A stretch of DNA of 4,733 nt from a virus (taxonomy: Duplodnaviria; Heunggongvirae; Uroviricota; Caudoviricetes). A program made the translations under genes and the position numbers. How positions within the stretch are numbered: position 1 is the first letter of the stretch; each line of letters starts with the position of its first letter. This document shows, one piece after another, positions 1,972 through 4,353 of the stretch. Location of the stretch: the IMG/VR virus record IMGVR_UViG_648276653_000008; one strand, given 5' to 3'. The notes under the pieces were generated by a model, which made no database searches, was not told the origin of the DNA, and worked only from the letters and a program-made list of their open reading frames with translations.

Positions 1972-1993
1972 TCCTCACGCTCCAGAAACGACA

Positions 1994-2013
1994 AAACCGC
2001 CCTGAGGCGGTTT
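1994..2013 (-). terminator. Stem-loop in the I-J intergenic spacer (8-bp stem, 4-nt loop) followed by a U-rich tract on the minus-strand transcript; candidate intrinsic terminator or mRNA-stabilising hairpin
   Basis: Minus strand reads AAACCGCC-TCAG-GGCGGTTT then TGTCGTTTCT: a perfect inverted repeat (plus 1994..2001 pairs with 2006..2013) with a U-rich 3' flank, between the I stop (2032..2034) and the J ATG (1971). Structure seen directly; function inferred. Confidence 0.35.
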
Positions 2014-2031: not shown

Positions 2032-2679
2032 TCAGCGACCAATCACCACAACCTGACCACCGTCCCCTTCGTCTGCCGTGCTGATCTCCTGAGAAGCCAC
2101 CCGCGACCCCACGCGCATTTCACCGTACAGAACGGGCAGAACATTGCCCTGGGCAACCATGTTATCCAGTGAGGAGAAATAGGTGTTCTGCTTACCGTTA
2201 TCCGTTGTCTGTGTACGGGGAGTTCTGGCTTTCGGTGCCAGCATCTGCGCCACACCGCCAAGGATCATACTGGCCCCCGCAGCATACATGCCCGATAAAG
2301 CCGCAGCTCCCAGCCAGCCTGCAGGGTTCCACCACGCCACTGCAATCAGCGCCGCACCCAGCACCGCCTGAAACACACCGCCACTTTTGGCTCCTGCCAG
2401 ACGCGGCACGATATGGATCACAGCACCATTTGCCAGCGGTTCATTAAGACGGGCTGATAATTCATTTTCGCCTGCATCACGCCCGGCAATGCGCACCTGA
2501 TACCAGCCCTCATTCAGTTTCTGGCGAAACGACGGAAGCTGCGTGGCCAGCGCCCGGATGGCTTCGGCCCCCGTTTTCACACGAAGGTCGATGCGGCGGC
2601 CAAATCGTTGTAAATCCCCGTAAAGGCAGATGCGTGCCATGCCCGGTGACGCCAGAGGGAGTGTGTGCGTCGCTGCCAT
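2032..2679 (-). CDS. I: Tail tip assembly protein I (215 aa, stop included)
   Basis: Track ORF 2032..2679 (-), MAATHTLPLASPGMARICLYGDLQRFGRRIDLRVKTGAEAIRALA..., ending GDGGQVVVIGR; recognised as lambda gpI family. Its 5' end overlaps the 3' end of K by 103 nt in another frame, as in lambda. SD-like GAGAGG at 2691..2696. Confidence 0.9.
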   Translation of the reverse strand: MAATHTLPLASPGMARICLYGDLQRFGRRIDLRVKTGAEAIRALATQLPSFRQKLNEGWYQVRIAGRDAGENELSARLNEPLANGAVIHIVPRLAGAKSGGVFQAVLGAALIAVAWWNPAGWLGAAALSGMYAAGASMILGGVAQMLAPKARTPRTQTTDNGKQNTYFSSLDNMVAQGNVLPVLYGEMRVGSRVASQEISTADEGDGGQVVVIGR

Positions 2680-3320
2680 TTGTCTGTATACCTCTCTCGT
2701 TTGCTCAGTTGTTCAGGAATATGGTGCAGCAGCTCGCCGTCGCCACAGTAAATGGCGGCATGATTCGGCACCGATGAACCAAAACAGCACAGCAGCACGT
2801 CGCCAGGCTGCGCCTCTGTCAGTGGGACACGGTAAAAACCCGTTGCCTCCATATTGTCAAGATAGAGATTCTGACCGTGACGCCACCAGTCATCCTCGCG
2901 ATGAAAATCCGGCATCTCAATCCCCGCCAGATGATAAGCATCCCGGAACAGCGTGTAACAGTCCGTCACCCCGTGCTCAAAGCGCCGCCCGGTGAGATGC
3001 GGCACACAGCGGAACTTATGAATCGTCCCCCGGCAGACCAGCCACCACGGCAAATCACTCTGCACCTGCAGCCGCCGGTCGGCCTCACTCAGCCAGGGCA
3101 GACCACCGGGGTGGCTGTGGACCAGCGCCACAATCTCACCCTGCATTTCTGCCTGCAGCCAGTCTTCCGGCGACATACGGAAATACGCCTCCGGCTCACC
3201 GGAGATATTCACGCAGGGGAAATATCTTTCCCCCTCCGGCGTGCTTACCACGAAGCCGCACGACTCCGCTGGCGCACATCGCCGGGCGTGCGCCAGAATC
3301 GCTGATTCTGTCTGTGTCAT
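2577..3320 (-). CDS. K: Tail tip assembly protein K, JAB/MPN plus NlpC/P60 two-domain protein (247 aa from first ATG; alternative internal start at 3176 gives 199 aa)
   Basis: Track ORF 2577..3320 (-). Contains JAMM-like motif H68-S-H70-x7-S78-x2-D81 (VHSHPGGLPWLSEAD) and an NlpC/P60-like Cys (TDCYTLF, C121) with downstream His residues (NHAAIY, ELLHHI). Recognised as lambda gpK. First ATG lies 5 nt after the L stop. Confidence 0.88.
   Translation of the reverse strand: MTQTESAILAHARRCAPAESCGFVVSTPEGERYFPCVNISGEPEAYFRMSPEDWLQAEMQGEIVALVHSHPGGLPWLSEADRRLQVQSDLPWWLVCRGTIHKFRCVPHLTGRRFEHGVTDCYTLFRDAYHLAGIEMPDFHREDDWWRHGQNLYLDNMEATGFYRVPLTEAQPGDVLLCCFGSSVPNHAAIYCGDGELLHHIPEQLSKRERYTDKWQRRTHSLWRHRAWHASAFTGIYNDLAAASTFV
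3188..3192 (-). promoter_or_regulatory. Shine-Dalgarno (GGAGG) upstream of the internal K Met49 ATG at 3176
   Basis: Minus strand reads GCCGGAGGCGTATTTCCGTATG; GGAGG is the complement of plus cctcc at 3188..3192, with an 11-nt spacer. The first K ATG at 3320 has no comparable SD. Confidence 0.4.
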
Positions 3321-3325
3321 GGGAT

Positions 3326-4024
3326 TTACTGCGAAAGTTTGTTAATGGAAAGGAAGCCGCCAAAGTTGCCGACGTTATTGCGGAACTTACAACCGCTCAG
3401 GCATTTGCTGCATTTATCCTTCGTGATATCGGACGTCGGCTGGTCATATTCATCCGCGACTGCCGGACCGTGATAACCGCACTCATCACCGCGATAGGTC
3501 CAGGTGCAGGTGTTGGCCAGCATGATACGTCCCGGAAAAACAGCACCGTCCGTTTCCGTCGGCGTGGACAGTACAAAAGAGGCACTCACCGCGCTCAGTT
3601 CGCTGCACTGCTCAATGCGCCAGCGGCTGATCACCTCCTGCTCCGGATCGGCGTCACTGTTTCCGTTGACGAAGTTCACCGCATCCAGAAAACGGGCGTA
3701 AACCTTACGCCGGACCACCGTTCCGCCGACCAGACTCTGCAGATCTTCCGCCATCCCGGTGACCATACCGTACAGGTTAGAAACCGTCAGCGTGGGGCGC
3801 GTACTGGTGCCTTTGCCATTCAGTTCAAAACCACTCCCCTGAATGGGATACGGCTGATACTGTCGCCCCTGCCAGGTGACCGGCTCACCTTTTTCGTTCT
3901 GCTCATTACAGAAAAAATAACGTTCTCCACCGACCTCTGTCAGATCGATTTCCCAGAGCACCACGCTGGCCGACTGCTCCGCACGGGTGCATTCATTCAG
4001 TGTTTCCTGCCGGATATCCTGCAT
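3326..4024 (-). CDS. L: Tail tip protein L (232 aa, stop included)
   Basis: Track ORF 3326..4024 (-), MQDIRQETLNECTRAEQSASVVLWEIDLTEVGGERYFFCNEQ...; length and sequence match my recollection of lambda gpL. C-terminal Cys cluster (C173, C182, C205, C208, C212). Start overlaps the M stop (TGATG). Confidence 0.93.
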   Translation of the reverse strand: MQDIRQETLNECTRAEQSASVVLWEIDLTEVGGERYFFCNEQNEKGEPVTWQGRQYQPYPIQGSGFELNGKGTSTRPTLTVSNLYGMVTGMAEDLQSLVGGTVVRRKVYARFLDAVNFVNGNSDADPEQEVISRWRIEQCSELSAVSASFVLSTPTETDGAVFPGRIMLANTCTWTYRGDECGYHGPAVADEYDQPTSDITKDKCSKCLSGCKFRNNVGNFGGFLSINKLSQ

Positions 4025-4353
4025 CAGTTCACCACCTGTTTAAACTCTGCGCTGAACTCAACACGCAACATACTGACCTGCGACGACCATTTTGCGCAGG
4101 TCACCTTTATCTGCCTGTAACCATAAGGCGGCGTCCACAGAAAGGCCTTCCAGCCCCCGTGCTCAGCCAGAAACGACTCCAGCGCCGTGGCCTCCTCACG
4201 GGAGACAGACAGCGTCACGCTGTACGTTTTCAGGTCAGCGTTCAGCCCGGCAGGCGCACGCTGGGAATAGCCATCACCAAAGCGCACCTCCCTGACGGAA
4301 GGAGCAGATGTCACATCCATCCCGGGTTTCACTTTCCAGCGGAAGGTTTTCAT
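4024..4353 (-). CDS. M: Tail tip protein M (109 aa, stop included)
   Basis: Track ORF 4024..4353 (-), MKTFRWKVKPGMDVTSAPSVREVRFGDGYSQRAPAGLNADLKTYSV...; 109 aa as in lambda gpM. Strong SD GGAGG (plus 4360..4364) 6 nt upstream of the ATG. The ATG overlaps the H stop (ATGA). Confidence 0.92.
   Translation of the reverse strand: MKTFRWKVKPGMDVTSAPSVREVRFGDGYSQRAPAGLNADLKTYSVTLSVSREEATALESFLAEHGGWKAFLWTPPYGYRQIKVTCAKWSSQVSMLRVEFSAEFKQVVN
4029..4037 (-). promoter_or_regulatory. Shine-Dalgarno-like element for L (AGGTGGTGA), inside the 3' end of M
   Basis: Minus strand reads AACAGGTGGTGAACTGATG; one mismatch to the extended SD AGGAGGTGA, 4-nt spacer. Confidence 0.4.

Follow-up and report, generated by a model that had tools for sequence, protein, structure and literature searches.

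The 103-nt overlap of tail genes K and I in lambda-type phages: constraint on two reading frames and the probable start of I

Introduction

In the tail operon of a tailed phage, gene K appears to end, and gene I to begin, in the same 103 nt of DNA. Does this DNA encode both proteins over its whole length, at which codon does I start, and does the arrangement tie the synthesis of I to that of K? We addressed these questions in a 4,733-nt stretch of viral DNA, called the window below, whose positions are counted from its first letter. Overprinted dual-coding regions of phages include the overlapping genes of phiX174 and the Rz/Rz1 genes of lambda, and lambda tail genes G and GT are linked by a programmed −1 frameshift. 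Translational coupling by termination and reinitiation needs a stop codon and a start codon that are close together.

The proteins encoded at this junction have been described as TAPK and TAPI, a predicted functional pair whose peptidase is of the JAB/NlpC-P60 type and whose substrate is ubiquitin-like (Iyer, Burroughs and Aravind 2006, PMC1779556). In that description, the ubiquitin-like β-grasp domain of TAPI ends in a conserved Gly, cleavage by the JAB domain of K is predicted, and fused K-I forms occur in some prophages (PMC1779556). That work is concerned with the two proteins; neither the overlap in the DNA nor the start site is analysed there. In the lambda virion, cryo-EM resolves only residues about 134–223 of gpI, as a trimeric plug, and gpK was not found; the supplement of a virion mass-spectrometry study lists a single gpI peptide, the sequence of which is not given. 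Our full-text literature search for the K/I overlap returned no match, and a CRISPRi essentiality paper contained nothing specific.

Results

Position of the overlap in the tail-tip operon

The open reading frames and Pfam matches identify the minus strand of the window as a lambdoid tail-tip operon. All on this strand, it carries the 3′ end of H, M (4024..4353; Phage_min_tail), L (3326..4024; Phage_tail_L), K (2577..3320; a 247-aa ORF with Prok-JAB and NlpC/P60 domains), I (2032..2679; a 215-aa ORF with a Lambda_tail_I domain) and the N-terminus of J, which begins at the ATG at 1971. The order across the junction, M-L-K-I-J, is that of lambda. K and I intersect at 2577..2679 (minus strand), as an earlier note on this DNA had stated in describing a 103-nt out-of-frame overlap, and I lies in the −1 frame of K because (3320 − 2679) mod 3 = 2. 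The shared stretch comprises K codons 214–247 plus the stop codon and I codons 1–34. It is also, as that note held, much longer than the other overlaps in the operon, which measure 4 nt at H/M and 1 nt at M/L; L and K are separated by a 5-nt gap and I and J by a 60-nt gap. In the gap from the I stop (2032) to the J ATG (1971) we observed a GC-rich inverted repeat, AAACCGCC TCAG GGCGGTTT, at about 1986..2013 (minus strand), followed by a T-rich tract; the element resembles an intrinsic terminator and is absent from the output of a simple terminator scan.

The same geometry is found in the lambda RefSeq entry NC_001416, where K (14276..14875) and I (14773..15444) overlap by 103 nt, and the overlap was thus already known; Stx-phage records annotate a 103-nt K/I overlap at identical coordinates. 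The window resembles lambda in gene order, in the length and −1 frame of the overlap, in the I N-terminus MAATHTLPLASPGMARICLYG and in the upstream GAGAGG, and its K-to-I DNA is about 88% identical to that of lambda (1335 aligned bases). It differs in that I has 215 aa compared to 223 aa in lambda, as a result of a different hydrophobic linker, and in that the K tail differs at two residues. The overlap is therefore the textbook lambda K/I junction: already known, real, conserved and ordinary. The nearest phage record to the window has 95.9% DNA identity, and I matches an E. coli prophage protein (P0001) at 100% identity.

Domain content of K and I

K is a JAB plus NlpC/P60 peptidase, with Prok-JAB at residues 3–104 (PF14464, E = 6e-14, 52.3 bits), NlpC/P60 at residues 111–224 (PF00877, E = 2e-13, 50.4 bits) and a C-terminal tail of 23 residues; both Pfam matches are above threshold. 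The JAMM residues E19, H68, H70, S78 and D81 were invariant in 22 diverse K proteins. With both domains in one polypeptide and a JAMM motif, K has the TAPK architecture as judged from its sequence, and catalysis is predicted. The identical 744-nt K gene is annotated in other records. The K ATG at 3320 has no Shine-Dalgarno (SD) sequence (+0.7 kcal/mol) and lies 5 nt past the L stop, a combination that suggests reinitiation coupling to L. In the lambda RefSeq entry, K starts at 14276 and has 199 aa, 48 codons later than the 247-aa ORF. The 199-aa protein is without the invariant Glu19 of the JAMM motif, and the 247-aa ORF holds the whole Prok-JAB domain, the additional part corresponding to window positions 3177..3320 and lambda positions 14132..14275.

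I is a ubiquitin-like domain plus tail-tip plug protein. It consists of an N-terminal extension of 12–13 residues, a ubiquitin-like β-grasp domain (residues 13–92), a Gly-rich/hydrophobic linker and a C-terminal plug domain. Pfam PF06805 (Lambda_tail_I) matches residues 14–97 with E = 1e-23 and 83.7 bits (gathering threshold 23.8), and I matches the lambda gpI chains 8iyk_I, 8iyl, 8k35 and 8xcg. An AlphaFold2 model built from 54 sequences had pLDDT > 90 in ten-residue blocks over residues 11–90, with β1 at residues 13–19, β2 at residues 29–34 and no predicted secondary structure in residues 1–12. Residues G96, G100 and G101 are conserved. Gly100-Gly101 (2377..2382, minus strand) ends the ubiquitin-like domain (..AGAKSGG) and, by analogy with the published TAPK/TAPI pair (PMC1779556), is the predicted site at which the JAB domain of K would cleave I. 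The window shares with that pair the domain architectures, the adjacency of K, I and J and the conserved Gly at the end of the ubiquitin-like domain. The view of K and I as a functional pair, put forward in the earlier note, accordingly has a published counterpart in the predicted enzyme–substrate pair (PMC1779556).

Constraint on both frames across the overlap

An alternative frame of 34 codons stays open by chance with a probability of about 0.2, or (61/64)^34, so the openness of the I frame by itself means little, and conservation is what exceeds chance. We compared codon positions in related loci, which were gathered by a degenerate DNA pattern scan and by single-protein scans. In a close set of 72 distinct relatives with 90–99% nucleotide identity to the window, K wobble positions were variable at 2/34 codons in the overlap versus 117/201 in K-only DNA (Fisher p = 3e-9), and I wobble positions at 10/33 codons in the overlap versus 121/181 in I-only DNA (p = 1.5e-4), where the counts of variable columns are non-independent events because the compared sequences are related. 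In 101 distinct sequences drawn more broadly, from several Enterobacterales genera, mean wobble entropy was about halved in the overlap in both frames. This suppression of wobble variation in both frames shows that K and I are both under purifying constraint. The earlier note had called the region doubly constrained and had proposed a codon-position analysis over 2577..2679; that analysis found constraint in each frame, in the 72 and in the 101 sequences.

The overlap has two parts. Sub-region A (2641..2679, minus strand) encodes the NlpC/P60 end of K, KWQRRTHSLWRHR, and the N-terminal extension of I, MAATHTLPLASPG, whereas sub-region B (2577..2640, minus strand) encodes the C-terminal tail of K, AWHASAFTGIYNDLAAASTFV, and the segment of I from β1 to β2, MARICLYGDLQRFGRRIDLRV. 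Among the 72 close relatives, K wobble positions were variable at 0/13 codons in 2679..2641 and at 2/21 codons in 2640..2580, and positions 2679..2645 were invariant, which could partly reflect constraints other than I coding. K-only DNA of these relatives varies mostly at K codon position 3. Most of the variation in sub-region B affects I wobble sites, which coincide with K codon position 2; some loci were retrieved by patterns inside the overlap, and this may depress the apparent variability of sub-region B.

An antisense ORF on the plus strand (2630..2995) was considered as a source of constraint and rejected, as K wobble variability is normal over most of this ORF. Rfam gave zero matches in the window, and a promoter and terminator scan found nothing within the overlap. 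Separately, many megablast alignments to Stx phages cover K and the overlap and end 30–95 nt beyond the K stop (about 2483..2548, minus strand), the remainder of I in those phages having only about 62% protein identity. Either a mosaic boundary lies just past the overlap, or the overlap remains alignable under its dual constraint even as I diverges.

Start codon of I

The I frame is open upstream of the K stop over 2712..2577 (minus strand), with a TGA at 2713..2715 as its upstream limit. The proposed I start ATG (2677..2679, minus strand) takes its A from the end of K codon 214 (AAA) and its TG from the codon of the conserved Trp215 (TGG). An SD-like GAGAGG (2691..2696, minus strand), read in K as the codons GAG AGG, precedes this ATG by 11 nt; it is located in K-only DNA just upstream of the overlap, and the earlier note was correct in placing it inside K. 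The anti-SD duplex was −9.3 kcal/mol for the 2679 ATG, a value comparable to those for the starts of M (−10.8) and L (−7.2), versus −2.5 kcal/mol for an in-frame ATG at 2640 and −1.5 kcal/mol for a GTG at 2580. The SD-to-ATG spacing at 2679, 9–11 nt, is above optimal. From this start, the I N-terminal peptide would be (M)AATHTLPLASPGMAR.

The distribution of start codons and SD sequences across clades bears on the same choice. GAGG occurs 11–13 nt upstream in every lineage with the upstream ATG and is absent where I starts at the Met14 equivalent. The K codon ahead of Trp215 is AAA (Lys), AGA/CGA (Arg) or TCA (Ser), depending on the lineage, but A is its last base in all of them. CTG or TTG stands in place of the Met14 ATG in Stx-type phages, among them the isolated phage PhiR5_1 (recorded host E. 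coli C), in Morganella, Providencia and Xenorhabdus prophages and in several IMG/VR lineages, leaving the upstream ATG as the sole ATG, GTG or TTG in the open I frame in most such relatives; a few of them have one further start candidate, at −15 or −3.

Met14 itself is the first alternative. If I started at the 2640 ATG (2638..2640, minus strand), the overlap would shrink to 64 nt, with the 13 codons upstream being K sequence in which the I frame is open by chance; a variant of this alternative has both ATGs used, giving two I isoforms. Distant I homologues (35–50% identity) begin at the Met14 equivalent, the Pfam domain begins at I residue 14, I residues 1–12 are predicted to be unstructured, and NCBI often calls an I of 200–202 aa from Met14 on identical DNA. 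Plesiomonas and Aeromonas (Aeromonadaceae) prophages and about 55 IMG/VR relatives of a Mannheimia phage likewise start at this position, with overlaps of 58–64 nt. In these Met14-start clades, the upstream I frame has stops in 63/73 loci, and a GGAG of their own, from the K codons TGG AGA, is found 8 nt before the ATG. The window, however, reads TGG CGT where those clades have TGG AGA, and its 2640 ATG has no SD (−2.5 kcal/mol). Moreover, many relatives that retain the upstream ATG and GAGG have CTG, TTG or GTG at Met14, and K wobble positions are frozen from 2679 and not from 2640 (0/13 variable in 2679..2641). The lack of an SD and of conservation at the second ATG also speaks against a dual start. 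We consider it unlikely that I begins at Met14, whether alone or together with the upstream ATG.

The GTG at 2580 would provide a conventional 4-nt coupling junction, GTGA (2577..2580, minus strand), in which the Val34 codon of I overlaps the K stop TGA, and there would be no long overlap. This start is annotated in two phage records, ON470612 and PV340545, and 182-aa versions of I exist in protein databases. It would, however, delete residues 1–33, which in the model contain β1, the next turn/helix and β2 and which include the first 20 positions of the Pfam domain; the skipped residues are the most conserved part of I. In addition, the GTG has no SD (−1.5 kcal/mol), and the position is GTA in one locus (L091). 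As it would remove β1 and β2 of the AlphaFold2 fold and lacks an SD, we rejected this start, to which we assign only a minute probability.

We infer from these comparisons that the 2679 ATG is the start in use. It is likely that I starts there, 103 nt before the end of the K stop, and that the lambda-type K/I junction is genuinely dual-coding from end to end. The preference for 2679 over 2640, raised in the earlier note, thus gains from the stronger anti-SD pairing and from the loss of the Met14 codon in relatives. Database lengths of I on the same DNA are 215/223 aa (from Met1), 200/202 aa (from Met14) and 182 aa (from GTG34), and loci annotated with a 200-aa I have the same upstream ATG and GAGAGG. 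Three entries (P0001, P0062 and P0100) present identical or nearly identical DNA under three different I starts, the 182-aa form being without the first two β-strands.

Distribution and origin of the overlap

The spacing of K and I varies widely. The two genes overlap by 4 nt in Burkholderia, Moraxella and T1-like phages, by 8 nt in Serratia and Stenotrophomonas phages, by 10 nt in a Dhillonvirus and by 16 nt in a Klebsiella phage, and in HK97, Mannheimia and Pseudomonas phages they are kept apart by gaps of 268–750 nt that contain inserted ORFs or terminators. Most relatives of the Mannheimia phage have a 58-nt overlap; a sub-clade with an insert of 29–930 nt keeps the K tail, LDFDGILNDIAVNN. 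Overlaps in the Enterobacterales/lambda clade are 97–136 nt (103 nt in the window). As compared across these sequences, the long overlap is specific to one clade, and the I start appears to have moved 39 nt upstream there.

The two additions that make up the overlap differ in their conservation. On the K side, the conserved NlpC/P60 end is KWQRRTHSxWRH, and distant K proteins stop 3–6 residues past the xRH motif, with K/I overlaps of 4–16 nt; in the window, the Met14 ATG sits at the corresponding place. Lambda-like K proteins carry an additional tail of ~20 residues (..AFTGIYNDLAAASTFV), encoded in sub-region B, that reads over the β1-to-β2 segment of I. The tail has the motif F-x-G-I-x-N-D-I/L, and its length and motif are the same where 29–930 nt part K from I, so the tail appears to be constrained on its own account. 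The earlier note had named, as evidence against its reading, relatives in which K terminates earlier and the last 34 codons are not conserved: distant relatives do end earlier, but in the lambda-like clade the tail is conserved. Within sub-region A, the K sequence KWQRRTHSLWRHR is conserved even among K homologues without the overlap. The I extension MAATHTLPLASPG is confined to the lambda-type clade, variable within it, and its 13 residues vary across clades following the K codon periodicity. The I extension looks like a younger, passenger frame laid over a conserved NlpC/P60 end.

Comparison of these clades suggests a history in three steps. The ancestor would have had a short stop/start junction at today's Met14 position. 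K would then have gained its ~20-residue C-terminal tail over the first β-strands of I, producing a 58–64-nt overlap. Finally, in the Enterobacterales/lambda clade, the I start would have shifted 39 nt upstream to a new ATG made from the K codons xxA and TGG, with a new GAGG arising upstream and the old SD (TGGAGA) being lost. This history is the most economical one, and the order of its steps is deduced from the comparison.

A more far-reaching version is that the overprinting was two-sided and in two steps, the K tail being laid over I in step 1 and the I start and SD being placed in NlpC/P60 in step 2, with both additions functional. If so, lambda-type phages with both ATGs would make two I isoforms, or K ribosome traffic would throttle I, and the peptidase and its ubiquitin-like substrate would be welded into a single unit that recombination could not split. 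Taken together, this set of propositions is doubtful.

Several further observations concern K/I junctions in other loci. Inserts of 29–930 nt (HK97, Mannheimia-type and Pseudomonas phage loci; L087, L088, L187, L196-L212 and L220) contain small ORFs and annotated terminators and are moron-like. In Mannheimia-type loci, the K tail and the I 5′ end both resemble the lambda overlap (about 65–69% over 26 nt, by eye), a resemblance that fits a duplication of the overlap at the time of the insertion. In another group (L100-L112, relatives of P0135), the gene before I is a JAB domain alone, ends in ..WWLVCGGRIYCFG.. and overlaps I by 14–26 nt in the other alternative frame; I has an extension of 12–15 residues in these loci, and no start codon occupies the Met14 position.

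Consequences for expression of I

With the 2679 ATG as the start, I would most likely be translated by independent internal initiation: GAGAGG in the K codons would recruit ribosomes to an unstructured stretch inside K, and ribosomes completing K would pass through the I start site. The RNA at the I start is less structured than shuffled controls (z = +1.65), so translation of K would not be needed for unmasking, and we rejected a masking RNA structure on this basis.

The earlier note had suggested that the overlap reflects tight stoichiometric coupling of I to K. A related proposal gives the overlap a regulatory role in setting the K:I ratio, with ribosomes on K either occluding or activating initiation at I. 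Every ribosome that translates K does cross the SD and ATG of I, this arrangement is conserved across Enterobacterales prophages, and K and I are a predicted enzyme–substrate pair. The stop and the start are 100 nt apart, however, which by established knowledge is too far for termination–reinitiation; the distances that such coupling needs are found at H/M (4 nt) and M/L (1 nt) and not at K/I. There is no RNA structure at the I start for K translation to open, and in relatives the two genes form 4–16-nt junctions or are up to 930 nt apart, with intervening ORFs and annotated terminators. The distance, the absence of masking structure and the spacing in relatives (4–16 nt or 29–930 nt) leave tight coupling unsupported, and a device for setting the ratio is quite unlikely.

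The −1 frame of I also raises the possibility that the overlap serves a programmed −1 frameshift from K into I, yielding a K-I fusion as at lambda G/GT. K-I fusion ORFs do exist in databases (P0002, P0004, P0009, P0041, P0042, P0046 and P0052), and fused forms have been reported in some prophages (Iyer et al. 2006). But no X_XXY_YYZ heptamer occurs in the K frame over 2712..2577, where the I frame is open, and the two that K does contain occur farther upstream, beyond the I-frame stop at 2713..2715. Homopolymer runs of at least 5 nt and Rfam elements are both absent, and each fusion ORF is represented by 1–2 member sequences with differing junctions. Since the relevant stretch lacks a slippery heptamer and no fusion product is conserved, we rejected a programmed frameshift as extremely improbable. 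The fusion ORFs are 335–377 aa long, and their frames join at varied points, for example in a GAGAGAGG run or at AAATGG. Frameshift mutations or assembly errors would be expected to leave just such few members and varied junctions, and these ORFs are probably frameshift mutations in decaying prophages or errors of assembly.

Relation to known overlaps and annotation

The K/I junction shares features with several known arrangements. As in short coupling overlaps (ATGA or TAATG; H/M and M/L here, and K/I of T1-like, Burkholderia and Moraxella phages), the stop and the start share DNA, but I starts 100 nt upstream of the K stop and is preceded by an SD of its own, which makes termination–reinitiation an unlikely mechanism. 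As in the overprinted genes of phiX174 and lambda Rz/Rz1, two frames are read, both products are used and wobble variability is suppressed; in contrast to those cases, K and I share only the termini of two older genes, neither gene lies within the other and there is no newly arisen protein. Like lambda G and GT, K and I are two tail genes in an operon, the downstream one in the −1 frame, although K/I has neither a slippery heptamer in the relevant stretch nor a conserved fusion product. The junction is a clean, small example of a gene start migrating within an overlap and not a new kind of system.

The overlap matters mainly for annotation, in that three I starts are annotated on the same DNA and the lambda RefSeq entry cuts the JAB domain of K short. 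In the sequence comparison, the favoured starts are the ATG at 2679 for I and that at 3320 for K. The choice of start affects modelling and expression of gpI and gpK, for example in work on the predicted cleavage of the ubiquitin-like domain by JAB.

Two groups of database sequences are peculiar. K-tail and I N-terminal peptides exactly matching those of lambda occur on contigs assigned to unrelated organisms (Neobacillus, Pseudoxanthomonas, Pseudomonas, Chromatium, Enterococcus, Paenibacillus, Shewanella, Desulfosporosinus, Bradyrhizobium and Leeuwenhoekiella), many of them short and of low coverage (L116, L119, L126, L128, L132, L137, L139, L144, L152, L153, L155, L162 and others); these lambda-identical junctions look like contamination of the assemblies with lambda DNA. 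Three further entries, L047, P0049 and P0082, contain internal duplications or chimeric K/L and I segments and are likely to be assembly artefacts.
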